64,000 bases of DNA from an uncultured Gammaproteobacteria bacterium (lineage in GTDB: Bacteria; Pseudomonadota; Gammaproteobacteria; Xanthomonadales; SZUA-36). A program made the position numbers and the translations under genes. The stretch lies in NCBI GenBank assembly GCA_963774415.1, contig CAVZEU010000005.1, positions 45,742-109,741 on the forward strand. The letters are read 5' to 3'. Below the pieces are notes generated by a model that worked only from the letters and a program-made list of their open reading frames with translations, ran no database searches and had not been told where the DNA came from. Position 1 is the first letter of the stretch. The number at the start of each line of letters is the position of its first letter. Below, in pieces: positions 13,870 through 46,261 of the stretch.

Positions 13870-13882
13870 GTTTATCAACCTC

Positions 13883-15034: not shown

Positions 15035-17954
15035 ATTCAATGGGCTTCTGCAACCACTTCAAAAGCGCCGCGAACAGGTTTTCCGGATTGACCGGCTTGG
15101 CGACAAAGTCATTCATGCCGGCCTCTTCGCAGGCGACGCGGTCATCCTCGAAGACATTCGCCGTCATCGCCAGTATGGGCAGGGTCGAAGCATGCCCATT
15201 GCCGAGCGTGCGGATGATCCGGGTGGCTTCCAGGCCGTCCATGTTGGGCATCTGCACATCCATCAGCACCAGGTGGTAAGGGTTTTCCCTGACCTTATGC
15301 ACGGCCTGTTCACCATCTTCGACCGTATCCACGGACAAATCCGCTCGTTCGAGCAGGGCTTTTGCCACTTCAAGATTGATCGCGTTGTCTTCCGCCAACA
15401 GGATACGCGCTCCGTTATGCCGGCTGCGCAATTGTTCTTCGGCATTCCCATTGTCGACCTTCGTCCTTGCCCGTGCCGTCTTCTGTCCGCGGCCCAGCGT
15501 CACCGTGAACCAGAATGTGCTGCCCTTTCCCGGTCGGCTGCGGGCACCGGTCTCGCCGCCCATCAGCCGCACCAGCCGCCGGGTGAGGACGAGACCGAGG
15601 CCGGTGCCGCCGTGCTTGCGCGTGGTCGACGCGTCCACTTGCTGGAACGGTTCGAACAGCCCGGCCAGCTGGCTGGTTTCGATCCCGATCCCGGTGTCGC
15701 TGACCTCGAAGCGCAGACGCAGATCGTCGGCGCCCTCGGCCTCCTTGATCGCACGCAGGGTGATGACGCCCTTGTCCGTAAACTTGACCGCATTGCTTAC
15801 GTAATTGAACAGGGCCTGGCGCAGGCGCGTGGCATCGCCTTTGAGCCAGGGCGAAAAGTCGTACGCCTCGACATCCATCCGCAAACCCTTTTCCTCGAGT
15901 TGGTCACTGAACATTGAACGGGCCTGACCGAACAGCTCGTCGAGATTGAAGTCGACCACTTCGAGCGCGACCTTACCCGCCTCGATCTTGGAAAGGTCCA
16001 GAATATCGTTGATGATGGACAAAAGGTGCGACGCCGCGACATTGATCTTGCTCAGCCGGTCGGCCTGTGCCGGCGTTGTCTGTTCCTGTTGCAGCAAATG
16101 GGTCAGACCAACGATGGCATTCATCGGTGTGCGTATTTCGTGGCTCATGTTCGCCAAAAACGCACTCTTGGCGAGATTGGCGGCCTTCGCTTTTTCCGTC
16201 GCCTCGGCCAATTGCTCCGTGCGCGCACGGACCAGTTGCTCGAGGTTCTCGCGGTGCGCCTGCAATTCCGCGTCGAGCTGCTTCTTCTCGGTGACATCGA
16301 CGTAGGATATGACCGCGGTCTTGCCTTCACCGACGTCCAGCATCGCCGCGTTGGCGATCAGGTTTCTTTCGTCGCCGTCCCTGGAATAGACGTCGAACGG
16401 GTAATCCCTGAGGAAGCCCTCCCTGATCAACTGCTGCACCGACTCGGACTGTGCACCCAAATCGACCCATTTGTTATCCGTAAAAATACTGACATTCAGT
16501 TCCTCGATGCTTTCGACCTCGTAAAGTTCAAGGCATTTCTGGTTGATTTCCAGGCGTTCACCGGTTTCCAGGTTCAGTATCTGCATGGCAGTGGGGTGCG
16601 TATGGAACGCCTTGGAAAACTTCTCCTGGCTTTCTCTCAGCTTTCTTTCCGCCTGCCTTTCCTCGGTGATTTTCTGGGTCACACCCATGACCCTCGCCAC
16701 CGCGCCATCGGCATCGGGGATCGGCACGAAATTCGAAGCGAATATCTCGTCTGCTGTGGTGCCATGGCCGGAAAACTCGAATTCCGAACCGCGGCCGGCA
16801 AACGCATCGCGAAGCAATGCACCGATTCGCTCCCGGTCCTTCGAATCCACCATGTCGAGGTAGGGTGTGCCGAGAACAGCGCGCTCGTCGCTCACGCCTA
16901 TCATATCGAGGCCGCTGGCGTTGATGGCGACGACATCGCCGGATGAATCCACCTCGTGGATGCACACTGGTGCGTGGTCCAGCAGCGTGCGGTAACGCGA
17001 TTCGCTCAACTGGATTCTCGCCAGTGAATGGCCATAGGCCCTGGCGAACACGAGCAGGAAAACCGGGACCAGGACCAGCAGCGTGATCGCGAGGCTTATG
17101 ACCAGCGGCAGGTGCTCGGCCAGTACTTCCCGCATAATGACCGACTCGGGCACACGTATCGAGATCGCCGCCCCGAGCGATGCGCTGTAGGCAAAAACCG
17201 CGGCCTGGCGCTCGCCTGAATTGGGCGCGATCCAGCCGCTCCAGTCAGATTGGGATGCGAGCACTTGGGCCAACGTCGTCGCGCGCTGCGGCCGCCCTGC
17301 CGCACCGGCCTCGTCCCGGTACTCGCCATACAGTGAAACACCGGCGGTTGGCCGCGCGGAGGCGGCGCGCGCGTCGACTAACAGCAACCGGCTGTTTTCG
17401 AATTCGTGTTGCAGCCCGGCCCAGGTGACATCGATCAGGCGCATGCGTTCCGCGCGGCTGACCGACGCTGGCTGCTGATCGGCAAGCGCGGCCAACGATT
17501 GCGCCAGGCCCAGGTTTTCCTGGACCACGTCCTTGAACTTCAGTGCCTTTTCCTGCTTGTAGCTGTAATAAACCGTGACCGACGTCAGCGATACCATCAA
17601 CGCCATAAGCAAGATCGCGCCGAGGTTGAACGTGGACGTTTTCTGCCGCAGCCGGGGTTCCACACCATCGGCAACGTCGCTGCCATGCGAACGCTTTGAG
17701 CGCCACAGCCTGGCCAGGCCGACCAACAAAAGGGTGGAAATCAAAAGCGCGGTTACTTCGACCGCGAGATCGACCTGTCTGACCCCGACGGCAGCCTCGT
17801 AAAAGCTGATTGCACGGCGCAGGCTCATCAACAGGACCGCGATGCTCACGGCTATCCACGAGAGGCGCTCCGCTTTCCAGGAGATGAGCAGGGCGAAAAC
17901 CGTGGCTGCCAATTGGGCCGCAAGCGACGCGGCGAGCACGTAGACACCCATCAA
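15027..17954 (-). CDS. Hybrid sensor histidine kinase/response regulator (TM sensor, PAS x2, HisKA, HATPase, REC)
   Basis: 975 aa. N-terminal TM helices and a periplasmic-type loop, then PAS regions. H-box ([18 protein letters not shown]), HATPase G-boxes (DTGIGI, GGTGLGL) and a C-terminal receiver ([13 protein letters not shown].. [13 protein letters not shown]). Confidence 0.9.
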
Positions 17955-18226
17955 CCACTCACCCGTCTTGCAAAGGTAGGTTTACACGCGCAACCAGCGC
18001 TGGAAAATGTCATAGATCTGTTTTCAATGCACCGCAGACCGCTATGTCCTGCCTGACATGCCGTCTGCATCCGGGTGATCAATTACACCCAAACAGCCCG
18101 CTCACGCGCTGGGTTCAGCGTTGTTCCCTGTGGACCCCCAATGGATAGAGTAAATTAAAAGCTGTTGCCTTGAAACTGTTAATAATTACGGGAATTCCTG
18201 GTGGTGCTTCCACGATCGCCTGGCGC

Positions 18227-20704
18227 TCAGCCGGTCAAGCTTTCCCGCCTGCGCAGCATCAGCCAGCGCACCAGGGCAGGCAACACGACGATGGCCGCGA
18301 CCATGTTGGCCAGAAAAATGAAAGAAAGGAGTATCCCCATGTCGGCCTGAAACTGCAAGGCCGAAAAAATCCAGGTGCCGACACCGATCGCCAGCGTGAA
18401 ACCGGTGAATATCACCGCCCTGCCGGTCAGCCTGAGCGTCCGGTAATAAGCCTGACGGAATTCCAGTCCGGCCTTGAGCAACTTATGCAGGCGGTTGTAG
18501 ATGTAGATACCGTAATCCACGCCGATACCGACACCGAGCGCCACCACGGGCAGCGTGTTGACCTTCAGGCCGATGCCATAGACCGCCATCAGCGCTTCGG
18601 CCAGCGTGGACACCACGATCAGCGGCAGCACGATGCACAAGGTTCCAAGCAAACTGCGGTAGGTCACCAGGCACAGGAGAATGATCGAGCTGAATACCAA
18701 CGCCAGCATCGGGTCCTGTGCCGCCGCGATTTCCTCGTTGGTGGCCGCCATCACCCCCACATTGCCCGTGGCCAGGCGGAAGCGCAGGCGCTCGGCGGCC
18801 GCCTGGCCTTCCCCGGCCTTTTTGCGCCGGGCTTGCTTGGCCTCACTGACGGCAGCCGGGTCGATGTCCATGTCCCGACGCAACGCCTTGACCTTGCGTA
18901 CAATCCGCGCGATCGTCGCGGCGCGGTGATCAGTGGTGAATATCATGACCGGCATGGCGCTGCAGTCGCTGTTCAAAAGGCCGGTGTCGGTATCGATATT
19001 ACTGAGGTCCTGGCGCAGCAGGTAGTGATTCCGCGGCAGGATGCGCCACTTGATATTGCCCTCGTTCCAGCCGGCATTGACCACCTTGACGACCTTCGGC
19101 AACGTGATGACCTTCTGCACGCCCGGTGTGTTTTCGATGTGCCAGGCAAAGCGGTCGATGGCTTCCATGACGTTATAGTTTTCGGTGCAGGCATCCGGCA
19201 CGGTTTCGGCGATCACGGTCAGCACGTCCACGCCAAGCGCAAATTTCCTCGAGATCAGTTCGGCGTCCTGGTTGTAGCGTGAATCGGGCCGCAATTCGGG
19301 CACGCCGGCCTCGGAATCGCCGATCTTCATGTCCCTGGCCAGCCAGAACCCGCCGGCAAACAGCACCAGCGTGACCGCCAGCGTCCATGCCGCACGCCGT
19401 CGGTTGGTGAAGTCGGCCAAAAAATTCCACAGCACCGATTTCTGTACCGATTTGTTCAACAGCCGCTGGCGGTATTTTGTCGGGTTTTTGAACTGCACCC
19501 AGGACAGCAGCAACGGCAAGAGAATCAGGTTCGTCAGGATGATGACCGCGACACCGATACTGGCCGTGATGGCGAGTTCCTGGATGATGCGTATATTGAT
19601 GAACAATATGGTCAAAAACCCGATCGTGTCCGAAGCGAGCGCGATGGAACCCGGTACCAGAAGCTTTTTGATCGCCTCGCGCGACCCATGCATCGGCGAG
19701 CGGCGCGGGATATCGGTAACGGACGTGATGCCCTCGTTATACCAGTGCTCCGGGGTCCGCCCGCCGAATTCCTTCTCCACGGTCCAGGCGCTTATTTTCT
19801 GCACACCGTGACTGACACCGATGGCAAATATCAGAAATGGCGTCAGGATGTTCATCGGGTCGAGGCTGTAGCCCATCAGGTTCAGCGTGCCCAACTGCCA
19901 GACGACCGCCACCAGTGAGCAGGAAAGCGGCAGTACGGTCAGCCAGATGGACCTCGAATAGAGGTACAGGAGCAGGGCCGTCAGCACCAGTGCGATCAGG
20001 AAGAACCAGACGACCGTCTGCGCGCCGTCTGATATATCGCCGACAATCTTGGCAAAGCCGATGATATTCACGGTGAATTCAGGCCCTTCGAATTCTTTGC
20101 GAATATCCTCCAACTGGGCCGCCACTTCGCGGTAGTCCAGTTTCTGCCCGGTCTGGGGGTTTTCCTCCAGCAGGTTGGCCCAGACCATGGCGCCGGAAAA
20201 GTCGGCGGACACCAGCCGTCCGACCTCGCCGGACTTGACGATGTTCGAGCGGATCTTCCTGAACATCTCCGGCGACGGCTTGTAATCCGACGGTATGACA
20301 TTGCCGCCGGCGAAACCGTCCTCGACGATCTCGACAAAACGGACATTCGGCGTGAAGATCGAACGCACGCTGGCGCGGTCCACACCAGGGATGAAGAACA
20401 CCTTGTTGGTGATTTTTTCCAGAGCGTCGAAAAACGCGGGCGTGAACATGTTGCCGTCGCGCGCTATCAGCGCGACCAGTACGCGGTTGGCCCCGCCGAA
20501 CTCCTTTTCATACTTCAGAAACGTCCGCATGTATTCGTGTTCCAGCGGCAATTGTTTCTTGAAGCCGGTCTCGACCTTGAGTTCCGTCATCTGGTAGACC
20601 ATGGCGAGGGTGATGACCAGGAACGCCGCGACGATGCCGTAGCGGGTGTTGATCAGGGCCGTGGCGATCCTGTGCAGCCTGGTCTCCCGGACCCGTTCAG
20701 TCAT
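18227..20704 (-). CDS. RND-superfamily (MMPL/HpnN-like) inner-membrane transporter, module 1
   Basis: About 825 aa from ATG 20704 (MTERVRETRLHRI..), which overlaps the upstream BNR stop by 8 nt (ATGACTGA). The ORF track extends to 20749. Two 6-TM bundles with large periplasmic loops. Motifs GVDYGIYIYNRL and LQFQADMGILLSF are shared with the second copy at 46262. Confidence 0.85.
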   Translation of the reverse strand: MTERVRETRLHRIATALINTRYGIVAAFLVITLAMVYQMTELKVETGFKKQLPLEHEYMRTFLKYEKEFGGANRVLVALIARDGNMFTPAFFDALEKITNKVFFIPGVDRASVRSIFTPNVRFVEIVEDGFAGGNVIPSDYKPSPEMFRKIRSNIVKSGEVGRLVSADFSGAMVWANLLEENPQTGQKLDYREVAAQLEDIRKEFEGPEFTVNIIGFAKIVGDISDGAQTVVWFFLIALVLTALLLYLYSRSIWLTVLPLSCSLVAVVWQLGTLNLMGYSLDPMNILTPFLIFAIGVSHGVQKISAWTVEKEFGGRTPEHWYNEGITSVTDIPRRSPMHGSREAIKKLLVPGSIALASDTIGFLTILFINIRIIQELAITASIGVAVIILTNLILLPLLLSWVQFKNPTKYRQRLLNKSVQKSVLWNFLADFTNRRRAAWTLAVTLVLFAGGFWLARDMKIGDSEAGVPELRPDSRYNQDAELISRKFALGVDVLTVIAETVPDACTENYNVMEAIDRFAWHIENTPGVQKVITLPKVVKVVNAGWNEGNIKWRILPRNHYLLRQDLSNIDTDTGLLNSDCSAMPVMIFTTDHRAATIARIVRKVKALRRDMDIDPAAVSEAKQARRKKAGEGQAAAERLRFRLATGNVGVMAATNEEIAAAQDPMLALVFSSIILLCLVTYRSLLGTLCIVLPLIVVSTLAEALMAVYGIGLKVNTLPVVALGVGIGVDYGIYIYNRLHKLLKAGLEFRQAYYRTLRLTGRAVIFTGFTLAIGVGTWIFSALQFQADMGILLSFIFLANMVAAIVVLPALVRWLMLRRRESLTG

Positions 20705-21728
20705 TGCCGTCCCCGCTGACCTTCTTTTCCGGGAAGTGGTAAGTGCCATGTTCGCCCGTCAGTACGAAGCTTCCGTCTCCCATTGCGGCCACTGCGGAGA
20801 AATCGACACCGCTGCTATGCCGATGGACTTTGAACACTCCGTCTTTAAGGACCAGGATGATGCCGTTGTTGGCGACCAGCACGACCTTGCCGTCAGCCTG
20901 GACCGCGCCCGAAATGCTCGATTGCGTGCCGCTGTCGAGTTCCGTCCAGGTGGAACCGAAATCACAACTGCGCATTACGTGGCCGCGCAGCCCGTAAAAC
21001 AACACACAGCCGGCATCGGTCTTCAACGCGCCCCACATGGAACCCTGGTAGGGCAGTGACAAGGCCTCCCAGCTTTGCCCGTCGTCAAAACTCCGATAGG
21101 AATAGCCCGCCTCCCCGGCAATCATCCGCCTGCCATCGGCAAAACGAAGCATGCCGTTGAGGTGGTAAGTATTCTCGGGGTCGACTGCGCCATCCTTCCA
21201 GGTTCTGCCGCCGTCGCTGGTATGCAGGTATAAACCGTAGGAACCGATGGCTACGCCGTGGTTTTCGTCGGTGAAGAGAATATCCATGACGGCCTGCTCG
21301 CGACCTGGGTCGAAGAACTGCCGTGTCCACGTGTTGCCGCCGTCAGCGCTGGTGATGATCACCGCATCGTGTCCGCCGGCCCACAAGCGCTGCCCGAGGC
21401 TGAAGACCGTCGTCAGCGTGGAGCGTGTCGGCACGACATCGGCCTGCTTCCAGTGCTCACCATCGTTCGACAGGATAACGTGGCCGCGCTCGCCGACGGC
21501 CACCAGCGTGCCATCAGCGCGGGTAATGTCGAGCAGCAGGGAGTGGGTGGCCAACGGCATGTGCTCGGCGTACAGGATATCGCGGCCCCCGTCCGCCGCC
21601 CCGGGGTTCGCAAATGCCACTGCGATCAACATGCATAACAGCCCGGCGAGCAATTGCACCGGCCTGCTCAGCTGACGTTGTATCACCTCCCTTGCCTGCA
21701 TAGCGCCGCCAGACAGGCCGGTCGGCAC
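20697..21728 (-). CDS. Ycf48-like / BNR-repeat beta-propeller protein (periplasmic), module 1
   Basis: 343 aa with signal peptide (LLAGLLCMLIAVAFA). Asp-box-like repeats: SNDGEHWK, SADGGNTWT, TSDGGRTWK, FDDGQSWE, CDFGSTWT. Start uncertain (GTG 21728 or ATG 21701). Confidence 0.8.
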   Translation of the reverse strand: MPTGLSGGAMQAREVIQRQLSRPVQLLAGLLCMLIAVAFANPGAADGGRDILYAEHMPLATHSLLLDITRADGTLVAVGERGHVILSNDGEHWKQADVVPTRSTLTTVFSLGQRLWAGGHDAVIITSADGGNTWTRQFFDPGREQAVMDILFTDENHGVAIGSYGLYLHTSDGGRTWKDGAVDPENTYHLNGMLRFADGRRMIAGEAGYSYRSFDDGQSWEALSLPYQGSMWGALKTDAGCVLFYGLRGHVMRSCDFGSTWTELDSGTQSSISGAVQADGKVVLVANNGIILVLKDGVFKVHRHSSGVDFSAVAAMGDGSFVLTGEHGTYHFPEKKVSGDGND

Positions 21729-21745
21729 CGGCCCGTGAAGCCGGA

Positions 21746-23122
21746 TCAGCGGCGGCCGCGCGTACGCAAGGCCTGTGGCGTAAAGTCGCTCGGGTTCATT
21801 TTGACGTTGAACGTGTTGACCGGGTAATTATTGTCGAAACCCTGACCGACATACCTGCCGGATTGCAGGTCGTAATGCACCTCGATCGTACTCCAGAACG
21901 TCGGCACATCGTAATAATTGATGCAATGCGCTTCGGAGACGCGCCACAATTGCAACCGGCCGTCATAATGGTCGGTCAGCAGAATCTGGTAGCTGTCCTC
22001 GTCCAGGTAATAGGTGCGTTTGGGGTTGATGTGCCGCATGCCTTTCTTCAGATCGGCCTCGACCACCCAGACGCGGTGCAATTCATATCGCATCAGGTTC
22101 TGGTTCAGGTGACCGGGCTGAATGAAGTCGTCATTACTGACCCCTGCTGCATGGGCCTTGTAAGAGTTGTACGGTACGTACATCTCTTTCTTGCCGATGA
22201 TTTTCCAGTTGAACCGGTCCATCGCGCCGTTGAACATGTCCGTCATGTCGTTGGTCCGCAGACCGTCGGAAGCCGTTCCCGGGTTGTCGTAGGCCACGTT
22301 GGGCGCGCGCCGCACGCGACGCTGACCGGGGTTGTAAATCCAGGCTTGACGCGGCTGCAGTTTCTGGTTGAGGGTTTCATGCACCAGCAGGATGTTGCCC
22401 GCCAGGCGCGCCGGGGACTCCACTTCCTGGTAGAAATACAGCAATATGTTGTTGATCGATTCAATGGTGGCGCCCGGCTGGTAGTACAAACCCAGCAGCT
22501 CCTCGCGAATGACGGTGACCGAGTACTGGCCGCTGGCCGTCGGTGCAATCTGGTTGTTATAGCGAACGCCGCCGATGCCCTTGTACTTGAGCTTGTGGTT
22601 CCACATCAGTTCATAGGCGTTCTCGGGGAACGGGAACGGAAACCCTTCCGCCGCATCGGCAACCCCCTCGCCGTCGGCGACCAGTTTTGCGGTGGCGCCG
22701 TTCTTGGCGGTCATTTCGTAGATCCGCTGCGGGAACGAGGCCGAGCGCCGCGTCGGATACACGTCCATGAAGTAGGTATCGGGATACTTTTCGAACATGG
22801 CCTGCAGGCCGACGCTGAGCTTGTCCGCGTACTGCTTGTAGTTGGCGCCGGTGATCCGGAACAGCGGCTTGTCGTCCGGGAACGGATCCTCATGATGGTC
22901 TCCCGGCTTGTAACCGGCCGGCGGTTGGGTGATGCCGCCGGTCCACGGCGGGATCGTGCCGTCCGCATTGCCGGCCCGCTCGGAACCCATCGGCGTCAGG
23001 TCTTCACTGAGGCGGTGAACCTGGTCGGGGTGCGGGCCGGCGAACGCCTGGCCGGCGGCCAGGCATGCCGCCAGTGCGATTCCCATGCAGGTTGGAAGTG
23101 TTCGTTTGCTTAATAGTCGCAT
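21746..23122 (-). CDS. DUF1329-family (LolA-like, 'outer membrane lipoprotein-sorting') periplasmic protein, module 1
   Basis: ATG 23122 (MRLLSKRTLPTCMGIALAACLAAGQAFA signal peptide) has GGAGA 6 nt upstream. The TPMGSERAGNADGTIPPWTGG opening is the hallmark DUF1329 N-terminus. About 458 aa. Confidence 0.85.
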   Translation of the reverse strand: MRLLSKRTLPTCMGIALAACLAAGQAFAGPHPDQVHRLSEDLTPMGSERAGNADGTIPPWTGGITQPPAGYKPGDHHEDPFPDDKPLFRITGANYKQYADKLSVGLQAMFEKYPDTYFMDVYPTRRSASFPQRIYEMTAKNGATAKLVADGEGVADAAEGFPFPFPENAYELMWNHKLKYKGIGGVRYNNQIAPTASGQYSVTVIREELLGLYYQPGATIESINNILLYFYQEVESPARLAGNILLVHETLNQKLQPRQAWIYNPGQRRVRRAPNVAYDNPGTASDGLRTNDMTDMFNGAMDRFNWKIIGKKEMYVPYNSYKAHAAGVSNDDFIQPGHLNQNLMRYELHRVWVVEADLKKGMRHINPKRTYYLDEDSYQILLTDHYDGRLQLWRVSEAHCINYYDVPTFWSTIEVHYDLQSGRYVGQGFDNNYPVNTFNVKMNPSDFTPQALRTRGRR

Positions 23123-23137
23123 GACATTCTCCGGCAA

Positions 23138-25000
23138 TCAGAATGAGTAACTGATACTCGCAGTGTAGAAGTCCCGATCCTGGAGCAGGTTGTACCGGCC
23201 GCCGCCCATGTAGTTGGTGTAGGCGAAATCCAGAACCCATTTTTGCAGGTAATTGAAGCCGAGCCCGACCGTCAAGGTCTTGCGCCCGTCGACGAAAGAG
23301 CCGCCCGGTCCGGGCGTCGTGCCGTTGACGTCATGCGCCCAGGCCAGCCTCGGTGCAACCGTCCAGGCGCCGACGACGTTGTTGTACTCGGGACGGATCA
23401 ACACGCGGTAGCCCCAACTGAAATCGTCGGCGAAACCGTCAGGCTCGGTCATCGGGTTGCGGAAATCCCCGCTGAGGTAATCCGGGCCGCCGCCGAGATC
23501 GGTGCCCGGCCCGTTGAAGCGCAAAACGTCCTTGGACGGCAGGTTCGGCACGTAATTGAAACCAACCTCGGCCACGAAGGCGACCTGGTCGGCCTTGAGG
23601 GCATTGTTCGGCCCGAACAGCTTGGTCGTGGTGGCCTGGGCCTGCCAGGACTTGAACCTGCGCCAGCCCCGGATTTCCTCGCCCGGAGCGAAATTGCCCA
23701 ACTGGCTCTTGAAGCGCAGCACCGGCGCCGGGATCAGCGGGTTCAGCGGCGACAGGCCGGCGAACAGGATCTCGACGTCGTCGATCTGCAGCGGCGCATT
23801 CGGCCGGTAACTGACCTCACCCGCCAGCGCCCAGGTGCCGATGTTGCTGTTGAAACTGGCGCCGATGAGGTGGATATCTTCCGGGTACTCGGTCCAGTAG
23901 GTGCCGCTGCCCAGCGCCTGGCTGGTAATGGCCGAACCGCTGATCAACGGCAGCCGGCTGTGATAGTTGAGGTAATACAGCGCAAACTCGGTGCTGTTCA
24001 GGTTGTCGGCGAAATAACGCAAGGCCACACCGAACTGTCCCTTGTCACTGGGCAGGCGACTCTTGGCCCGCGGGAACGACAGGCTGCAACCGGTCGCCAC
24101 CAGCGTTGGCGGCAGTCCCGTGTCAGATGCCGCGTAGTTGCCCTGTCCGCAAACCGTTCCGTAAAGATCCGGGTTGATCACCGGCTGCGGTACCCCGCCG
24201 AAACCGAGCATGACGTAGGAAGCGCCCGGTGTCGCGATGTCGTTGGTGCTGAAGAACGCGCCCGCCGGGTCCGGTATGATCTTGCGGTACTCGAGCATGT
24301 ACAGCGCTTCCACCGACGTGTTCTGCGTCAGGTCCATGGAACCCCAGAGCATGTTGACGCCTTCGAAGGCTTCTTTCAGTTGGGCCCCGGCCGCACGGAG
24401 GCGGGACACGTCGACCGGGTTGATGATATTGATCCCGCCCTGGATGAAGGTCGACTCACCCCAACTCACGACCTGCCGGCCGACACGCCAACTCAGCGTG
24501 TGTTCGCCCAAGCCCTGGTTGCCCCAGATATACAGGTCCAGCAGGCGCGCGTCCTTGCCGACGCGTTGTTTCGCATCGTGCGAGAGAAACGCCTTGTCGT
24601 GGTTCTCCAGGTCGTAGAAGGCCATAAAGCGTGTAAAGGCGCCGAAATTGCGCCAGCGGAGGTCCAGTTCCGACGTGATCTTGGCCGTGTTGGACACGAG
24701 GTCACCGGCGTCGGGATAGTTCAGGCCGCCGTCGTCGTTGTTGACCGACCAGCGCCCGGGCGCCGCCCGCTGGCCGGCGTTGTCCAGCAAGAACGTGGTC
24801 GGGTTGAACCAGGCCTTGCCGATGAATTTCTCTTTCGCGTCCGTCGCGCGCCACGTCGCGCCGAAGCTGATCGTCGTATCCAGGCTGCCGGTCATCTCCC
24901 CGCTGGAAAAATCCAGGGCCGAGGCTGCCGTGCTCGCCATTGCGGACAGCAGCAGGCAGGTTAACACGGCGCCTGCAAGGTGCTTGCGTTGGCTCTTCAT
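23138..25000 (-). CDS. DUF1302-family predicted outer-membrane beta-barrel protein, module 1
   Basis: ATG 25000 gives MKSQRKHLAGAVLTCLLLSAMASTAASA signal peptide; GTG 25054 is the ORF-track alternative. RVGRQVVSWGESTFIQGGINIINPVD motif. Alternating beta-strand pattern and aromatic C-terminus (SISYSF). Confidence 0.85.
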   Translation of the reverse strand: MKSQRKHLAGAVLTCLLLSAMASTAASALDFSSGEMTGSLDTTISFGATWRATDAKEKFIGKAWFNPTTFLLDNAGQRAAPGRWSVNNDDGGLNYPDAGDLVSNTAKITSELDLRWRNFGAFTRFMAFYDLENHDKAFLSHDAKQRVGKDARLLDLYIWGNQGLGEHTLSWRVGRQVVSWGESTFIQGGINIINPVDVSRLRAAGAQLKEAFEGVNMLWGSMDLTQNTSVEALYMLEYRKIIPDPAGAFFSTNDIATPGASYVMLGFGGVPQPVINPDLYGTVCGQGNYAASDTGLPPTLVATGCSLSFPRAKSRLPSDKGQFGVALRYFADNLNSTEFALYYLNYHSRLPLISGSAITSQALGSGTYWTEYPEDIHLIGASFNSNIGTWALAGEVSYRPNAPLQIDDVEILFAGLSPLNPLIPAPVLRFKSQLGNFAPGEEIRGWRRFKSWQAQATTTKLFGPNNALKADQVAFVAEVGFNYVPNLPSKDVLRFNGPGTDLGGGPDYLSGDFRNPMTEPDGFADDFSWGYRVLIRPEYNNVVGAWTVAPRLAWAHDVNGTTPGPGGSFVDGRKTLTVGLGFNYLQKWVLDFAYTNYMGGGRYNLLQDRDFYTASISYSF

Positions 25001-25043
25001 TTTCGTTTCCCTAATGGCCCTTAACGTACTGGTTTTCGCAAGA

Positions 25044-27311
25044 TCAGTTTTCACGGCGCACCCCCCGCCTCAAAGGCACCTGCACCGCCTGCGGAGACGC
25101 GGCGGCCACCGGTTCGGATTTGCCCTTCGATTTCCCGTCCGTGTTTCCGGCCTCGCTGACCCCCGGTTGGACGTTGACGGCGGGCACCGCGATGATCGGC
25201 ACCATCGTGCTCTGGTCCGTGACCTGGATCAGGCCGCCGTGCGAGGCGATGAACGAGGCCATCTGTGTCTGCATTTCAACGGTCGCAGCCACGGAATACG
25301 CCGGGCTTATGAGCGAACCGTGCTCGGCCGGCGGCAGGAAGCGCGCCGCGGCGCGTAAACCGTCGGGACTTTGCAGCGTGCTGCTGTAGGGCGTCAGCCC
25401 ACCGACCGCGATCAGCGGTTCGGTGCCCGACAGCGGCGCCGTGTCCACGTAATTCGGGACAACCGTGTCACCGATCACTTCATGCAGCATGATCGGTGTG
25501 ACACCGGCAGCCTCCTGCACCCAGTTGACCGGGTCCGCGGAATCCAGCACGGTCTGCCAGGCGATGAAAAACTGCTCGTAGTCCGCAGTGCCTGGTTCCA
25601 GACCCGCTCCGGCGTACAGGCCAGCGCGGATGGGCGGACCAAAAGTGGGAGATGCTTCCGCGAATCGGGCGATACCGCCGCCCGGCGCGGACAGCACGGA
25701 ACGCGAAATCAACGGCTCATAGGCGCTGAGGATCGTGCCGTGCATGGCGCCCCACGAATGTCCGACATAGGCGATGTTGGTGCCGTCGGTGTCCGGCACC
25801 GTGTCATCGTCGAAATCCATTTGCGGCACCGACAAGGCCAGCACGGACAGGTCGGCGACGCCCTGCCGGATCGTGTCGCGCCCGGTCAGCATGCTGGCGA
25901 GCGCAGCGCTCACCCAGTGCGTGCCCGACGGGTCGATCAGGCCGTCCGGTCCCGGCGCACCTGTCTGGTTATTGATGATATCCGTGTCGAAGGTGCGTTC
26001 GTTCGCGACCGGCGCAAAGGGTGTGTTCTCAACGTAAAAACCGGCCAGTTGGGGCTCCTCGTCCGGATTGACTCCGTGCAACGGAAAATCGATCGCGACC
26101 GCCGCGTAGCCGATGGAGGCCAGCGTATCGGCGATCGCCAGCAAGTCGGTGCGGTTACGCGTGATGCCGTGGCCGTATATCACGACCGGCCAGCCGCCGG
26201 CGGGCTTGGCATGCCCGGAATACGCGTTCGGCACCGTCACCAAGAGCGGCACCGTCTGCATGCCGGTCAAAACCGGCATCGGGTTGGCGACCGTGATATT
26301 GGTCGAAGTCGGGTCGAGGCCGTACTGGTCGAACGGCGGCACGTAAGCGCCCGGCGCGGCCTTCCAGAACCCCGTCAGCGCGGCCGTGGGATTCTCCGGC
26401 GTCGGTATGCCCGAGTAATACGGCAGCGTGATGATGCCAATTTCGATATCGGCGATGCCCGCCCCGCCCACCGCGGCCGTCGTCATCATGGTCGGCACGA
26501 TCGTCGTCGGCGCCGGCTGGGCCGCGGCCCGCAGTTGTTTCAGCGTCCGCGTAACCGATTCGGTCTGCACCGTCCAGCTGAGGATGATGTCGTCCGGGTC
26601 GATACCGGCGTAGGCGGCCGCGTTCAGCTCCATGCTCTGGGTAGCCTGCCTGAGCGGCTCGAGGTTTTGCGCCGTCTCGTCGTCGATCAGCGAGTAAGTA
26701 CTGTGGCCGTTGGCGTCGACCCAAGGCGTGCGCCGCTTGGTCAGGAAATACGTCGTGTCCGGGGTCGCGTCGTTGCCGGCAGCATCCTTGATGCCGTTGG
26801 TCAGCACGGCCATGTAGGCCGTGTACTCGTGCAGCGGGCGCAGCGGCAGAATGACAACGTTGCTGCCGGAGGCCAGCGCAAAGTAATCGAGACCGGGCGT
26901 CAGTTCGCGGACAATACTGGTCACCGCGACGAACGATTGGGTCGTGACCTCGAACACCCTGACCGATTGCCCCGGCACGACGGAGGCCGGGTCGATGGCG
27001 CCGGGCTGGCCGTTGACGTCGACAAAACCGGTCACCCACTTCTCGGTGGTGCTGAAGCCGTCGAGCGCATCGAGCGCCACTATCGGGTCGCCGTAATCGG
27101 TCGGGTCCGCGGCCGGGATATTCAGCGTCAGGTCGGTGGTGTCCGTGAACGCCAGGTTCGACGGAAACGGGATAGGACCGTCAGGCGGGGCGAAACTCGC
27201 CGTCAGCACGCCGGTGACGACACTGCCGTCCTTGTTCAGCGCCGGACCGTACTGGGCGCTGACGTTGAGCGTGAAAAGTGACAGGAACAGCAGGATTAGA
27301 CGCTTACTCAT
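25044..27311 (-). CDS. Secreted alpha/beta-hydrolase lipase, VolA/Pla-1/cef-like (bacterial lipase N-terminal domain plus GxSxG domain)
   Basis: About 755 aa from ATG 27311 (GGAG RBS; MSKRLILLFLSLFTLNVSA signal peptide). Long N-terminal beta-rich region, then the nucleophile elbow GHSWG (YVGHSWGAMHG). Size and layout resemble Vibrio VolA / Aeromonas Pla-1 lipases. First gene of the operon. Confidence 0.75.
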   Translation of the reverse strand: MSKRLILLFLSLFTLNVSAQYGPALNKDGSVVTGVLTASFAPPDGPIPFPSNLAFTDTTDLTLNIPAADPTDYGDPIVALDALDGFSTTEKWVTGFVDVNGQPGAIDPASVVPGQSVRVFEVTTQSFVAVTSIVRELTPGLDYFALASGSNVVILPLRPLHEYTAYMAVLTNGIKDAAGNDATPDTTYFLTKRRTPWVDANGHSTYSLIDDETAQNLEPLRQATQSMELNAAAYAGIDPDDIILSWTVQTESVTRTLKQLRAAAQPAPTTIVPTMMTTAAVGGAGIADIEIGIITLPYYSGIPTPENPTAALTGFWKAAPGAYVPPFDQYGLDPTSTNITVANPMPVLTGMQTVPLLVTVPNAYSGHAKPAGGWPVVIYGHGITRNRTDLLAIADTLASIGYAAVAIDFPLHGVNPDEEPQLAGFYVENTPFAPVANERTFDTDIINNQTGAPGPDGLIDPSGTHWVSAALASMLTGRDTIRQGVADLSVLALSVPQMDFDDDTVPDTDGTNIAYVGHSWGAMHGTILSAYEPLISRSVLSAPGGGIARFAEASPTFGPPIRAGLYAGAGLEPGTADYEQFFIAWQTVLDSADPVNWVQEAAGVTPIMLHEVIGDTVVPNYVDTAPLSGTEPLIAVGGLTPYSSTLQSPDGLRAAARFLPPAEHGSLISPAYSVAATVEMQTQMASFIASHGGLIQVTDQSTMVPIIAVPAVNVQPGVSEAGNTDGKSKGKSEPVAAASPQAVQVPLRRGVRREN

Positions 27312-27483
27312 GATTGAGCTCCCCATAAAAAGTGCAGTACCAATACGCCGTTATGCCGCGAGCCCGGAGCCGGGCGGGCCGAAGTCCGCTCGCGGGCAAG
27401 GCTGAATTTGTGTTATTTAACAACCCCATTGACTGCTTCTCTGGCTGGCAGTCTCTTGCGCGTGCAATAGGTCATTTTCCAAT

Positions 27484-27499
27484 CATACGGCAGCGTATG
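27484..27499. promoter_or_regulatory. Inverted repeat CATACG-N4-CGTATG (candidate operator)
   Basis: Perfect 6-bp arms in the 296-nt divergent region between the lipase operon and the PHA-protein/TetR genes. Function is inferred only. Confidence 0.25.
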
Positions 27500-27607
27500 C
27501 AAAAACAAAAATGGCAAATTGGATGTTGTTGATCTAAATCAAACGGCTTGTCGTCATGGAATACGGCGCGGGCGGTGGATTAGACTGCGCTTAACACCGG
27601 GGAAAGC

Positions 27608-27904
27608 ATGACGAACGTGTTCACTATCGATATCCAGGCTAGCCACCAACTGGTCCATGCCGGGGCTTTGCGCGCCGCCGAAGCGTTGTCGCGCGATTTG
27701 GCGGAAAGGTTCGCTATCGCTTATCACTGGGAAGACGAGGTGATTGTGTTCCAGCGGCCCGGTATCCGCGGACGCATCCGCGTACAGGACACCAAGATCG
27801 CGGTAGAAGCGCACCTGGGTCTGATGTTGACGCTGTTGCAAGATTCCATCGAGCGGGAAATCGTTCGCTATCTCGAGGAGCACTTCGGCTGCCGCTTCCG
27901 ATAG
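27608..27904 (+). CDS. Putative polyhydroxyalkanoic-acid system protein (PHA_gran_rgn-like)
   Basis: 98 aa. Size and pattern (H.L....A...AE.L...L.ERF...Y.WE.....F.R.G..G.I.V.D..I.V...LG.ML.LL...IE.EI..YL) fit the small PHA-system family. GGGGAAAG RBS. Confidence 0.65.
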   Translation: MTNVFTIDIQASHQLVHAGALRAAEALSRDLAERFAIAYHWEDEVIVFQRPGIRGRIRVQDTKIAVEAHLGLMLTLLQDSIEREIVRYLEEHFGCRFR

Positions 27905-28013: not shown

Positions 28014-28655
28014 GTGATGAAGCGCCGCGACACACGTGAATTGATCCTCGCCACCAGTCTCGCGCTGTTCAACGAACTGGGCGAACCCAATGTCAGCACC
28101 AATCATATCGCTGACGCGGCCGATATCAGCCCGGGCAACCTCTATTACCACTTTAACAACAGGGAGGAGATCGCCCTTGAACTGTGCAAACGCTACCTGC
28201 TCGAAATCCAGCCGATGCTGGCAACCGAAAAGGGCGCAGCCACGGACATGGAAGACCTGTGGCTGCGACTGCACCTGATATTCGAGCTGATGGGCCGCTA
28301 CCGCTTTTTGTTCCGTAACCTGCCCGATCTGTGCGACCGCGTCAGCAATTTGCAGCGCGCGTTCCAGGGCCTGCTCGGGCGCCAGCGTTCCGCGCTGCTG
28401 GCCATGATCGGGGCGCTGCGGGGTAAAGGCATCCTCGAAATCGATGCCAATGAAAGCGAGGTCCTGGTCGAATCCATGCTTTTGGCGATAAACTGCTGGA
28501 TTCCGTTCGCCCAGGTCAGCGCTGACCCCGGCCTGTCCGACGGACGGCTTCAGGCCGATGCGGCCGCACGCGTCCTGCACCTGGTCCTGCCTTACGCCAG
28601 GGAACCCGAAGCCGGCCGCCTCGAAGCGCTGGCGCTCCGCTATCGGCAAAACTAA
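28014..28655 (+). CDS. TetR/AcrR-family transcriptional regulator (PhaD-like position)
   Basis: 213 aa. N-terminal HTH RELILATSLALFNELGEPNVSTNHIADAADISPGNLYYHF is canonical TetR_N. Confidence 0.85.
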   Translation: MMKRRDTRELILATSLALFNELGEPNVSTNHIADAADISPGNLYYHFNNREEIALELCKRYLLEIQPMLATEKGAATDMEDLWLRLHLIFELMGRYRFLFRNLPDLCDRVSNLQRAFQGLLGRQRSALLAMIGALRGKGILEIDANESEVLVESMLLAINCWIPFAQVSADPGLSDGRLQADAAARVLHLVLPYAREPEAGRLEALALRYRQN

Positions 28656-28704: not shown

Positions 28705-29262
28705 TCACTCCTGGCGGGTTTTTGCCGCCGCTTTGGCCGCGTTCTTCTGTGCCGGCTTTGCCGCCGTTTTCCTCGCTACCCGCTTGCGTGTCTTTGCGGT
28801 CCTGGTCGCGGTACTTGCAGTGAGCGCGCTCACCCTTTGCGACAGGGATTCAACACGATCGGACAGCTTGCTCACCTCCTCGGCGGTCGGCACGCCGAGA
28901 CGGCCCAGCACCCGCGCAACGCGATCTTCGAAGATGTTCTCGAGCTTGTCCCAATTGTCGGTGGCCTGCTGACGCACCGCCCCGACCCTGGAGTCCACGT
29001 CGCCCTTGATGTCACCCACGGCCGATTCAGCCGCATTACGGGTTTTCTTTTCCAGCTTCTTGCCCTCCGAGACCAGCTTTTCGAACAGTTTGTTGCCCTG
29101 CTCGATCAGCTTGCCGCTCTCGGCCTGGGCGACGGATACGGCACCGAGGCCGGCGAGCCAGATTTCACGCGCGGAATCCAGTACCGGCGCGGCAAACCCG
29201 GGTGCGTCGCGCCTGGCCTGTGTCTTTCCCGAAGGCTTCTTTTCCGAAGTTTTCTCTGTCAT
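28705..29262 (-). CDS. Phasin / PHA granule-associated protein (PhaF-like, with short basic AKP-type tail)
   Basis: 185 aa. EIWLAGLGAVSVAQAESGKLIEQGNKLFEKLVSEGKKLEKK and VLGRLGVPTAEEVSKLSDRVESL match the PHA_granule_1 family. C-terminus is Lys/Ala-rich (KTRKRVARKTAAKPAQKNAAKAAAKTRQE), like the histone-H1-like tail of PhaF. Confidence 0.8.
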   Translation of the reverse strand: MTEKTSEKKPSGKTQARRDAPGFAAPVLDSAREIWLAGLGAVSVAQAESGKLIEQGNKLFEKLVSEGKKLEKKTRNAAESAVGDIKGDVDSRVGAVRQQATDNWDKLENIFEDRVARVLGRLGVPTAEEVSKLSDRVESLSQRVSALTASTATRTAKTRKRVARKTAAKPAQKNAAKAAAKTRQE

Positions 29263-29684: not shown

Positions 29685-31520
29685 CTACCACCGATAAGCG
29701 CCGCTCAGGCTCACCTGGCGGCCGACGGCGGGTGTCCCCGGGTAATACTGGTAATGGCTGTCGCTCACGTTGTCCACCGCCAGCGTGAGGACAAAGGCAT
29801 CGACCGCCGGCGGGTTCCAGGCCAGCGAGAGGGCGCCGAAATACGCGCTTTTCCCGTGCTGGCGCAGCGGGTTGTCCTGCTGCACCCGGTACTCGTTGTC
29901 GAGGCGCAATTCCACCTGCTTGCTCATGTCCCAGCGCAATGAAAGCGTTGCCCTGTGGCGTGCGAAATTGAGGGCATAGAAACTCGCGTCGACCAGGCTG
30001 GTGCCATAGTCGGCGTTCTTGTGGAGCCACGTATAGGCGGCGACCGCGTGCAGCGTTTGCCAATTCCTGGCAGCGATCACTTCCGCACCGAACACATCGA
30101 TATCCACCGCGTTGGCCTGGCGCGCGAAGGGCGCACCCGTAAAATAGGTCCAGTCGACCAGGTTGTCGTCCTTGCGATAGAACAGCGTCGCCAGGGCGTT
30201 CCAGGCCGGTGTTTCCCGGCTCGCCGTGAGCGCCAACTGGCGGGCTCTTTCACGGCCAAGGTCGGGATTTCCGCCGAACAGGCCCGCGGGGGGCGACTTC
30301 AGGGCCGTGTAGCCCGGCAACTGCGACGTCGCGGCATATTCCAGCGCCACGCGGGTGCTGCCGCCCGCTGACGAACTGCGCATGCTCAAACCAATCAGCG
30401 GCGAGACGGCGCCGCCGTCTCGATTGGAGTTGTCCAGGCTCGCGCCGGCCCGCAAGCGGACGACACGCGTGGCGGAGCGGGCAAGATCGATCGCCGGCAC
30501 CAGCGTGAGCTTGAGATAGCGGCGAGCGTTGAAGCCGCCCCCGGTGAGATCGGTCGAACGCACCAGCCGGTCGGCCGTCAGTTGCCCGCCGAACCGCCAG
30601 TCGATGCGCCCGCCGCGCCAGCCTGCCTGGACCGCGGCGGCCCAGACCCGCGTCTTGTGGTCGAACGAGCCGGGCCTGCCGGACTCCTTGGTGGTGCGGT
30701 CAAAATCGTAGTTGTCCACCAGTCCGCGGTAGTAAGCGCTGAATACCGCCCAGCCCTCAGCGCTTTCCCGGCGGTGGTTCAGCAGCAGCAGCCGTGTCTT
30801 GGTGTGATCGGTCTCCGCGAGCGAGGCAAAACCCGTGTACGCGCCCGGCCAGCCGAAGAACTTGTCCTGGTAGGCCAACAGCAGGTCCGTCTGCGTGTTC
30901 CCCTGCCGGCGCTGCAGGTGCAGGTTGTAGCGGCTGAATTCGTGATCGCCGTTGGCGACCGTGCCGTCGCCTTTCGAGTAGGCGGCCGATAGCGCCATGG
31001 CCGATACCCGTCCGCCGGTCCCGCTTCGCGCCCATGCCTGCCGTATCGAGCCGTAGCCCAGACTGTCGTTGCCGGCGCCCAGCAGGGTATCGCCGCCCGC
31101 GGCGACAGCCGGCAGCGAATACGCGAGCGTCGCCACGTTCGAATTAAAGCCGAGAACGGCGTTATCGATGCCGGTCCGCACCCGGGGCGGCGTCAAAAAG
31201 CGCGGATCGATCGGCAGGCCCGCTGAATAATGGCCGGTCTGCGGGTCCATGATGGTTGCCGCACCGACGGCAAAACCGGTATTTTCAAAAACGCCGCCTT
31301 CGACCGTTACGTCGGCCTGGCCTTCCGGCAAGCCGCGCGGCTGCAATTCGGTCTGCGGGTCGAATCGAAGGCGCGTGGCCAGCGACGCATAGCTGCCGGC
31401 GGGCTGCAAGTTGGCTACGCGTCTGCCGATGACCCTGACCTCGTCCAGCGGCTGCTCGTCGGCCAGCACCGCGCTCGTAACGAACAACAGCAACAGGCAA
31501 CACAAACTGCGGCGGCTCAC
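29685..31520 (-). CDS. TonB-dependent outer-membrane receptor (BtuB-like size)
   Basis: GTG 31520 gives M/V-SRRSLCCLLLLFVTSAVLA|DEQ signal peptide; the ORF-track TTG 31634 adds 38 non-signal residues. Has a plug-domain opening and a beta-barrel. C-terminal VSLSGAYRW resembles BtuB ..LSGSYTF. Confidence 0.85.
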   Translation of the reverse strand: MSRRSLCCLLLLFVTSAVLADEQPLDEVRVIGRRVANLQPAGSYASLATRLRFDPQTELQPRGLPEGQADVTVEGGVFENTGFAVGAATIMDPQTGHYSAGLPIDPRFLTPPRVRTGIDNAVLGFNSNVATLAYSLPAVAAGGDTLLGAGNDSLGYGSIRQAWARSGTGGRVSAMALSAAYSKGDGTVANGDHEFSRYNLHLQRRQGNTQTDLLLAYQDKFFGWPGAYTGFASLAETDHTKTRLLLLNHRRESAEGWAVFSAYYRGLVDNYDFDRTTKESGRPGSFDHKTRVWAAAVQAGWRGGRIDWRFGGQLTADRLVRSTDLTGGGFNARRYLKLTLVPAIDLARSATRVVRLRAGASLDNSNRDGGAVSPLIGLSMRSSSAGGSTRVALEYAATSQLPGYTALKSPPAGLFGGNPDLGRERARQLALTASRETPAWNALATLFYRKDDNLVDWTYFTGAPFARQANAVDIDVFGAEVIAARNWQTLHAVAAYTWLHKNADYGTSLVDASFYALNFARHRATLSLRWDMSKQVELRLDNEYRVQQDNPLRQHGKSAYFGALSLAWNPPAVDAFVLTLAVDNVSDSHYQYYPGTPAVGRQVSLSGAYRW

Positions 31521-31572
31521 CGTGTGCCCGAACGCGCTTGGGCGACGGGCCGGCAATGGGTCACCGAGCGTG

Positions 31573-31601
31573 AAAACACCATGCCGCTGCAAGCGGGCAT
31601 G
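31573..31601 (-). terminator. Candidate leader attenuator hairpin upstream of the TonB receptor start
   Basis: Minus strand CATGCCCGC-ttgca-GCGGCATG (8 bp, one bulged C), followed by GTGTTTTC. Lies between the riboswitch-like element and the GTG 31520 start. Confidence 0.4.
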
Positions 31602-31639
31602 CCGAAAGAGACAGATCCATTTTGAAGCACGCAAAACAT

Positions 31640-44223: not shown

Positions 44224-44237
44224 GTTGGCCTCCTTGT

Positions 44238-46259: not shown

Positions 46260-46261
46260 TT

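Follow-up and report, generated by a model that had tools for sequence, protein, structure and literature searches.

Organization of the probable lipase-led operon

The window analysed here is a stretch of 64,000 nucleotides (nt) from an uncultured Gammaproteobacteria bacterium (GTDB lineage Pseudomonadota; Gammaproteobacteria; Xanthomonadales; SZUA-36), i.e., positions 45,742 to 109,741 of contig CAVZEU010000005.1 in assembly GCA_963774415.1. Within it, a gene for a predicted lipase related to VolA precedes four genes for putative envelope proteins (a DUF1302 protein, a DUF1329 protein, a Ycf48-like BNR propeller, and an RND permease), which together are referred to below as the module or cassette. 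According to the list of open reading frames (ORFs) and a reading of the sequence, these five co-directional ORFs fill the minus strand from 27311 to 18227:

27311..25044, minus strand, lipase, 755 amino acids (aa)
25000..23138, minus strand, DUF1302 protein, 620 aa
23122..21746, minus strand, DUF1329 protein, 458 aa
21728 (or 21701)..20697, minus strand, Ycf48-like BNR propeller, ~334-343 aa
20704..18227, minus strand, RND permease of the HAE3/MMPL type, 825 aa

The original prediction, made earlier for this DNA, described five co-directional and tightly spaced genes, and the coordinates and junctions read from the sequence bear this out. The lipase stop codon (TGA, 25046-25044) is separated from the DUF1302 ATG at 25000 by the predicted gap of 43 nt, which becomes an overlap of 11 nt if the alternative GTG at 25054 is used. 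Direct reading likewise agrees with the prediction at the next junction, where the DUF1302 stop codon (TGA, 23140-23138) is followed by ttgccGGAGAatgtc, containing the motif GGAGA, and, after a gap of 15 nt, by the DUF1329 ATG at 23122. The predicted gap of 17 nt between the DUF1329 stop at 21746 and the propeller gene applies when the latter begins at GTG 21728. This start is uncertain, because an in-frame ATG at 21701, which would give 44 nt, is equally good, and because the median gap in relatives is 87 nt. Finally, the stop of the propeller gene and the start of the RND gene have ATGACTGA in common, which confirms the overlap of 8 nt; a value of -8 nt is also the median among relatives.

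In a consensus scan of 17700..27800, promoter- and terminator-like sites were no more numerous than in shuffled sequences, and none was located at the junctions. No clear intrinsic terminator was seen after the RND gene, and none separates it from a sensor kinase gene that begins 270 nt further downstream:

15027..17954, minus strand, hybrid PAS/HisKA/HATPase/receiver sensor kinase

This kinase was considered as a further member of the operon and rejected, as it is not kept beside the block in relatives.

Predicted products of the five genes

Searches with Pfam and NCBIfam hidden Markov models upheld the families originally assigned to all five ORFs. The lipase consists of an N-terminal Lipase_bact_N/Ig-like region (PF12262, 59.4 bits, cut-off 22.3) and, at the C-terminus, an alpha/beta-hydrolase domain that bears the motif GHSWG (residues 517-521), and S519, D615, and H664 are invariant in an alignment of 21 lipase homologues. 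It can be aligned with Vibrio campbellii VolA across both domains at 25-27% identity and with the catalytic motifs in register, such that GHSWG, GDTVVPN, and EHGS pair with GHSLG, GDATVPN, and THST of VolA. On the VolA/Pla-1 model TIGR03502, the lipase reaches 337 bits (E 2.2e-100, in three stretches), which is below the curated cut-off of 383.9, and the bona fide V. campbellii VolA reaches 847 bits. Because the score is under the cut-off while both domains align with VolA, the protein is, as judged from these comparisons, a clear VolA homologue that falls outside the curated TIGR03502 subfamily. The original description of the lipase as VolA-like is thus justified by homology over both domains, but it needs to be qualified by the TIGR03502 score and by the fact that the protein is not a lipoprotein, as VolA is. 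Moreover, unlike in VolA, the adjoining gene encodes a DUF1302 protein and not FadL.

The N-terminus of the lipase (MSKRLILLFLSLFTLNVSAQYGP) contains no cysteine, and its Sec-type signal peptide, which ends in MSKRLILLFLSLFTLNVSA before Q, has no lipobox. The earlier term 'secreted' is supported to the extent of this signal peptide, but the final location of the enzyme is not readable from the sequence. It is reasonable to regard the protein as a predicted Sec-exported serine lipase/esterase with a predicted acyl-ester hydrolase activity. An AlphaFold2 model has a mean pLDDT (predicted local distance difference test) of 72, with the catalytic domain mostly above 85. Foldseek searches with this model returned alpha/beta hydrolases only (e.g., acetyl-xylan, glucuronoyl, and feruloyl esterases). 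The alpha/beta-hydrolase fold is thereby confirmed, but such generic matches give no hint of the substrate; a sequence search found no close lipase structure in the PDB. Residues 1-65 are of low confidence in the model despite conserved motifs, and the idea that they serve as a docking peptide was not adopted, given the shallow alignment (21 sequences).

The DUF1302 protein, a predicted outer-membrane beta-barrel, matches PF06980 over nearly the whole model and above the gathering score (E 2.6e-168, 561.9 bits, model positions 3-541 of 541), has a signal peptide ending in ...TAASA before L, and terminates in ...SISYSF. No relative of it in the PDB is detectable by sequence, and a DUF1302 family member of P. 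aeruginosa has been modelled as an 18-stranded barrel (PMC13499233). The DUF1329 protein, which is predicted to be LolA-like and periplasmic, is covered equally well by PF07044, again above the gathering score (E 2.3e-148, 494.8 bits, model positions 2-368 of 368) and scores 29.5 bits on PF17131 LolA_like, marginally under the cut-off of 30; for this protein, too, no PDB relative is detectable by sequence. Its signal peptide ends in ...GQAFA before G and lacks a conserved lipobox, and the N-termini of its relatives share the cleavage context GQAxA followed by G(P/A)KPD.

The propeller matches PF14870 PSII_BNR (E 5.1e-18, 65.8 bits against a cut-off of 27) and the Ycf48-like protein of PDB entry 2xbg (E 2.8e-17). 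On NF010237, it obtains 66 bits, far under the cut-off of 326, and it is therefore not the photosystem II factor itself. A single N-terminal hydrophobic segment (residues 26-44) represents either a signal peptide or a signal anchor.

The permease matches PF03176 MMPL (E 5.5e-24, 85.2 bits against a cut-off of 20.5) and TIGR00921 HAE3 (E 1.8e-51, 175.1 bits), the latter below the curated cut-off of 351.9; on these scores, it is an HAE3/MMPL-like protein outside the curated TIGR00921 subfamily model. Its hydropathy fits 12 transmembrane (TM) segments in the order TM1, loop, TM2-6, TM7, loop, TM8-12, with two periplasmic loops of ~200 aa. Sequence searches identified MmpL4/5, HpnN, and MmpL3 as relatives with PDB structures. 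Residues D282, S298-H299, and D730-Y731 are conserved in at least 97% of 59 homologues, which include distant ones, the paralogue encoded in the same window, and plasmid-borne proteins. The intramembrane Asp-Tyr pair D730-Y731 is presumably the type of relay that MmpL3 uses for proton coupling.

Conservation of the lipase linkage in relatives

A scan of one genome per species with the lipase returned 80 loci, and the set analysed comprised 82 non-duplicate loci. A locus was considered evaluable for the lipase-DUF1302 order if at least 700 nt followed the lipase gene, and for all five genes if at least 9.2 kb was available. The lipase gene was followed by DUF1302 in 76/76 evaluable loci, and all five genes were present with order and strand unchanged in 51/51, with median gaps of 20 (lipase-DUF1302), 18, 87, and -8 nt. 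Lipase adjacency in relatives had been set in advance as a test of the original prediction, which it passed without a single exception. In three long contigs that encode lipase homologues of 60-70% identity, for example, the order lipase-DUF1302-DUF1329-BNR-RND is embedded in entirely different flanks. Clustering of the flanking ORFs distinguished at least three upstream contexts; 35 loci have a DASS/CitMHS transporter there and 23 an Nramp-like protein, and other contexts occur as well. As the adjacency of the lipase is kept while the flanks change, the notion of a functional unit is supported.

The loci derive nearly all from Wenzhouxiangellaceae, 'Lysobacterales', and gammaproteobacterial metagenome-assembled genomes (MAGs), to which the isolate Elongatibacter sediminis CH-27 can be added. 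The best protein matches of the lipase are metagenomic, with an identity of at most 90%, and, among named relatives, an uncultured Wenzhouxiangellaceae MAG (L004) is nearest to the window. Across the loci, lipase identity ranges from 49 to 72% and rises and falls together with the identity of the four module proteins (Spearman 0.68-0.74); thus, the block has been inherited as a unit. These comparisons show that the five genes constitute a conserved unit, which is very probably expressed as a single transcript.

The lipases themselves occur in two forms. A lipobox (e.g., ...ILAGCGGSSS) is found in 38/82 loci, the lipases of which are 49-59% identical to that of the window, and the remaining 44/82, including the window, have no anchor; the five-gene block stays intact across this switch (38 vs 44 loci). 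In the subclade with lipoprotein lipases, DUF1329 is also a lipoprotein and contains an Ala/Glu-rich repetitive linker of ~200 residues (AEAERRAAEEAAR...), which resembles a tether that would let the carrier span the periplasm. Examples, together with additional ORFs of similar character that adjoin the module, are as follows:

L048 and L059, about 13880-14800, linker-bearing DUF1329 lipoprotein
L049, 13977-16100, additional lipobox-bearing ORF with Ala/Glu-rich repeat, adjoining the module
L029, 15430-17300, additional lipobox-bearing ORF with Ala/Glu-rich repeat, adjoining the module

A separate observation concerns a 1.2-Mb MAG contig (L003 / L042, 12385..14170), in which DUF1302 is called as two ORFs of 468 and 145 aa. 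Such a split points to a frameshift or an assembly error, the operon being intact in other respects.

The module without the lipase

Beyond this lineage, the module is common without the lipase. In a collection of plasmids and chromids, 43 records from other Proteobacteria contain a DUF1329 homologue, and a lipase homologue was found in 0/43 of them; in the whole collection, it occurs in just two records, Aeromonas and Vibrio chromosomes, neither of which is among the 43. Nine loci were inspected (from Pseudomonas, Vibrio, Azoarcus, Massilia, Azospirillum, Diaphorobacter, Cupriavidus, and Indioceanicola). Seven of these nine, from Alpha-, Beta-, and Gammaproteobacteria, contain the complete adjacent four-gene cassette, none of the nine has a lipase homologue, and the clusters that house the cassettes are devoted to the catabolism of aromatics, amides, or fatty acids. 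It follows that the lipase-led form is a variant specific to this lineage. Among plasmid-borne modules, the window DUF1329 is closest to members of pairs located beside a fatty-acid-CoA ligase and a LuxR-type regulator (47-57% identity, e.g., P. aeruginosa); its identity to members from aromatic clusters is 33-42%. The ligase/LuxR-type context is the arrangement described for PP_0765-0767 (10.1101/2020.07.04.188060).

Indeed, the four-gene module has already been described and named, and only its linkage to a lipase looks unreported: no lipase-linked form was found in the surveyed papers that mention DUF1302/DUF1329. As originally stated, the module has no established mechanism. AmeABCD of Castellaniella defragrans represents a conserved cassette lineage within HAE3, and its deletion reduced both the tolerance of monoterpene hydrocarbons and growth on them and raised Nile Red accumulation, which was read as efflux (PMC6394551). 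A cofitness cluster, Sama_1588-1591 of Shewanella amazonensis, with counterparts in Kangiella, P. stutzeri, and P. fluorescens, led to a proposal of cell-wall component export (10.1101/072470). In P. putida, mutants in PP_0765/0766 and PP_2018/2019 show defects that are specific to Tween 20 and butyl stearate and do not extend to laurate or myristate; these results come from pooled assays, which reveal cell-autonomous functions only, and no esterase was identified (10.1101/2020.07.04.188060). The fatty-acid-ester phenotype of P. putida given in the original prediction is therefore correct. Co-folding has predicted DUF1302-DUF1329 and DUF1329-BNR-RND contacts, on the basis of which a 'novel transport system' was proposed (PMC10866462), and a 2026 paper gives an interface score (ipTM, interface predicted template modelling) of 0.84 for DUF1302-DUF1329 (PMC13499233).

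The window itself contains a second, paralogous envelope module (42904..49661, minus strand), which has a different gene order and no lipase. It is followed by a strong terminator-like hairpin, and a TPR protein is encoded beside it:

49906..51549, minus strand, TPR protein, beside the second module
48615..49661, minus strand, Ycf48-like BNR lipoprotein with an LLTGC lipobox
46262..48622, minus strand, RND/MMPL protein
44238..46259, minus strand, DUF1302 protein
about 42904..44223, minus strand, DUF1329 protein, 55 bits on PF17131 LolA_like (scored as 42904..44364)

The proteins of this module are 22-29% identical to those of the lipase-linked one. Such values are consistent with two anciently diverged cassettes that may be substrate-specialised paralogues.

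Proposed coupling of hydrolysis to lipid transfer and its alternatives

The original prediction of a coupled lipid system formed by the lipase and the module is supported by adjacency that is conserved amid changing flanks, with the direction of transport and co-transcription as its predicted parts. The preferred reading, the probability of which is nevertheless put slightly short of even, is that hydrolysis by the lipase at the envelope is coupled to inward lipid transfer by the cassette. In the subclade of the window, the lipase would be either a soluble periplasmic protein or a released one, and in the sister subclade it would be lipid-anchored like VolA. Its substrates would be acyl esters in exogenous lipids, for instance lysophospholipids, phospholipids, or other fatty esters. 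The DUF1302 barrel would provide the outer-membrane route for the water-insoluble substrate or product, in the position occupied by FadL beside VolA. DUF1329 would then ferry the lipid over the periplasm in a LolA-like cavity, and the propeller-RND pair would accept it at the inner membrane, driven by the proton gradient. The net result would be the acquisition of nutrient lipids, direction being the least secure step. Inward transfer is favoured because the one relative of the lipase that has been characterised supplies an uptake channel, because the P. putida phenotypes are ester-specific and come from pooled assays that detect private functions only, and because the cassettes of other bacteria are embedded in clusters for the catabolism of hydrophobic substrates. 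The published co-folding contacts also back this direction.

Several observations weigh against this proposal, and some of them speak for outward handling, which is nearly as likely as inward transport and, taken as a full alternative, is a realistic if lesser prospect. It posits a proton-driven exporter that takes a lipid or amphiphile out of the inner membrane or periplasm and delivers it to the outer membrane or cell surface. Candidate cargoes are hydrolysis products that damage membranes (free fatty acids, lysolipids) and a lipid that belongs to the envelope or is surface-active. The lipase would make or remodel this cargo or contribute to the lipid homeostasis of the outer membrane, like PldA plus Mla. 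All characterised bacterial RND/MMPL relatives, i.e., HpnN and MmpL3/4/5, which are also those with solved structures, transport outward, and the conserved intramembrane D730-Y731 and S298-H299 suit a proton-coupled pump. The sole deletion study of this cassette type was interpreted as efflux, in keeping with the lowered monoterpene tolerance and increased Nile Red accumulation (PMC6394551), and Price et al., who proposed cell-wall component export, observed pleiotropic phenotypes in Shewanella and P. stutzeri (10.1101/072470). The Tween 20 phenotype could reflect the detergent sensitivity of a weakened envelope. Furthermore, the recurrent neighbours within 6 kb of the block in the 82 loci are of a housekeeping rather than catabolic type (DASS/CitMHS transporter, Nramp-like protein, and pyruvate dehydrogenase subunits), and neither fadL, fadD, nor beta-oxidation genes are conserved within this distance; the flanks are therefore uninformative on function. 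The location and substrate of the lipase, as well as the single transcript, are themselves predictions. However, product efflux is hard to reconcile with the P. putida defects, which are limited to ester carbon sources and absent on free fatty acids, and an exported surfactant able to diffuse would reach all strains of a pooled assay and leave no phenotype. The catabolic clusters in which other bacteria carry the cassette, and the uptake channel fed by the sole characterised member of the lipase family, also argue against export.

Conservation might also be explained by neighbourhood alone, if the lipase was inserted once in an ancestor and kept through a shared promoter, with no cooperation between the proteins. 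All linked loci belong to one lineage, such that descent contributes to the conservation (and weighs against the preferred reading), identities co-vary as vertical descent predicts, and the lipase is absent from all 43 DUF1329-bearing plasmid/chromid records. Nonetheless, this explanation is improbable in view of the lack of exceptions in both sets of evaluable loci, down to a lipase identity of 49%, the tight lipase-DUF1302 spacing (median 20 nt), the intact block in at least three upstream contexts, and the remodelling of lipase and DUF1329 (lipobox gain or loss, linker insertion) with the unit unbroken; in addition, the cassette has an ester phenotype of its own (10.1101/2020.07.04.188060). 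Another idea, to which an even smaller chance is given, is that the cassette serves to localise the lipase itself, the LolA-like protein and the barrel putting the enzyme on the surface and the RND pair supplying energy or release. The route of VolA to the surface is unexplained (PMC3656444), 38/82 of the lipase homologues are lipoproteins, and the predicted DUF1329 fold is that of lipoprotein carriers. However, the module is kept even though the window lipase and 43 homologues lack a lipid anchor, the cassette often occurs unaccompanied by a lipase or lipoprotein cargo gene, a folded 80-kDa enzyme would not fit through the 18-stranded AlgE/Occ-like channel model (PMC13499233), and protein handling by RND permeases is not known.

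Hydrolysis with inward lipid transfer is thus retained as the preferred reading. In the NPC2-NPC1 system, the RND-fold protein NPC1 takes lipid from a soluble carrier into its own membrane, and inward transfer through an RND fold therefore has precedent. A bolder and rather doubtful version of the proposal would make the cassette a proton-driven inward conduit for water-insoluble lipids, with the RND protein working in the direction of NPC1 and accepting lipid from the LolA-like periplasmic carrier, which would be loaded at a dedicated outer-membrane barrel; in this lineage, a built-in VolA-type lipase would feed the barrel.

Upstream region and other neighbours

The lipase gene is preceded by a divergent intergenic region, with a TetR-family gene nearby:

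27312..27607, minus strand, divergent intergenic region upstream of the lipase, candidate promoter/operator
28014..28655, plus strand, TetR-family gene, divergent from the lipase gene

An alignment of this region from the window and five related loci reveals an invariant palindrome, TTGATTTAGATCAA (27542..27529), and an invariant CTGCCGTATGAT block with TATGAT (27487..27482), which may represent an operator/promoter pair. Both elements are located upstream of a leader of ~165 nt. No family was matched in an Rfam scan of the conserved leader, and a consensus promoter scan found nothing in 27312..27607.

Several lipid-related genes are located further upstream:

27608..27904, plus strand, PHA_gran_rgn protein
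28705..29262, minus strand, phasin
31936..33039, plus strand, hormone-sensitive-lipase-family esterase
36155..37051, minus strand, GDPD phosphodiesterase
36940..39558, minus strand, MprF-like lysyl-phosphatidylglycerol synthase

The adjoining PHA_gran_rgn and phasin genes raised the idea that the lipase is an extracellular polyhydroxyalkanoate depolymerase, which was rejected as the main interpretation, as PHA_gran_rgn occurs near the lipase in only 11/82 loci. Two further ORFs of the window deserve mention:

29685..31634, minus strand, 649-aa ORF with coding-like GC content at third codon positions and no Pfam match
9553..12546, minus strand, BNR/sortilin-Vps10 repeat protein, 997 aa, with four F510_1955-type glycosylhydrolase-like stretches

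The former has an N-terminal LDEVRVIGRR motif, a C-terminus ending in ...YRW, and a faint C-terminal likeness to TonB-dependent receptors (TIGR01779, E 1.6e-6, far under the cut-off); from these features, it is probably a divergent outer-membrane barrel. The latter, beyond its type of repeat, has no evident kinship with the propeller of the operon.

Significance

Many Proteobacteria encode DUF1302 and DUF1329 proteins with their propeller/RND partners, which recur in catabolic islands for hydrophobic compounds; in one study, DUF1302 was conserved in 629/635 P. aeruginosa strains (PMC13499233). P. putida needs the cassette for growth on fatty esters, and the esterase involved was never found there. 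Within this context, the lineage of the window links a candidate esterase/lipase to the cassette, and the lipase, as its invariable first gene, names lipids as the probable substrate class. The finding is a comparative-genomics lead and not a new kind of system. It offers a natural genetic test system, which includes the cultured Elongatibacter sediminis, and the analogy with VolA-FadL makes the question of import versus export experimentally approachable. Should the inward conduit prove true, it would be the first bacterial RND-based importer and a general uptake route for esters, terpenes, aromatics, and steroids, which would explain two widespread domains of unknown function.

Comparison with known systems

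The closest counterpart of the four-gene module is AmeABCD. By family description, both systems comprise the same four families in the same order (DUF1302, DUF1329, COG4447/Ycf48-like, and HAE3 RND), and in the window, too, the four genes are adjacent and co-directional, as in an AmeABCD-type cassette. However, AmeABCD lies in a monoterpene catabolic island, has no lipase, and was interpreted as an efflux/tolerance system. The same four families also make up the Shewanella/Pseudomonas cofitness cluster, and Pseudomonas-type pairs are the closest to the window DUF1329. The Pseudomonas cassette differs in being split over two loci, in its LuxR-type regulation, and in the absence of an adjoining lipase, whereas the operon of the window has a built-in esterase candidate.

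With regard to the permease, HpnN, MmpL3, and MmpL4/5 resemble the RND protein of the window in their RND/MMPL fold, as judged by sequence, their small periplasmic domains, and the Asp-Tyr pair in the second half. The similarity mainly involves the transmembrane bundle at the C-terminal end (E 1e-4 to 7e-11). Unlike the RND protein described here, these exporters are not known to work with a LolA-like carrier, a propeller, and an outer-membrane barrel from the same operon. Such a combination of a transporter, a soluble carrier, and an outer-membrane acceptor or donor would be the logic shared with the Lol (LolCDE-LolA-LolB) and Mla (MlaA/OmpC-MlaC-MlaFEDB) pathways. However, Lol and Mla are ABC-driven, whereas an RND protein is present here, and the predicted fold class of DUF1329 is the only link by homology; the likeness concerns the possible mode of action and not the family.

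On the side of the lipase, the relevant system is VolA-FadL. VolA of V. cholerae is a surface-exposed lipoprotein lysophospholipase; it shares a transcript with FadL, and its hydrolysis is linked to the uptake of fatty acids (PMC3656444). In V. campbellii (locus L093), a FadL homologue is located 22 nt upstream of VolA. VolA is a lipoprotein, a form that is shared by 38/82 relatives of the window lipase but not by the window lipase itself. The partners also differ, as the lipase of the window is accompanied by DUF1302 and three further envelope proteins and is encoded first, whereas FadL comes first in Vibrio. Nonetheless, in both cases a homologous two-domain lipase with aligned Ser/Asp/His motifs is encoded tightly beside an outer-membrane barrel for hydrophobic molecules, a role that is predicted for the DUF1302 protein.

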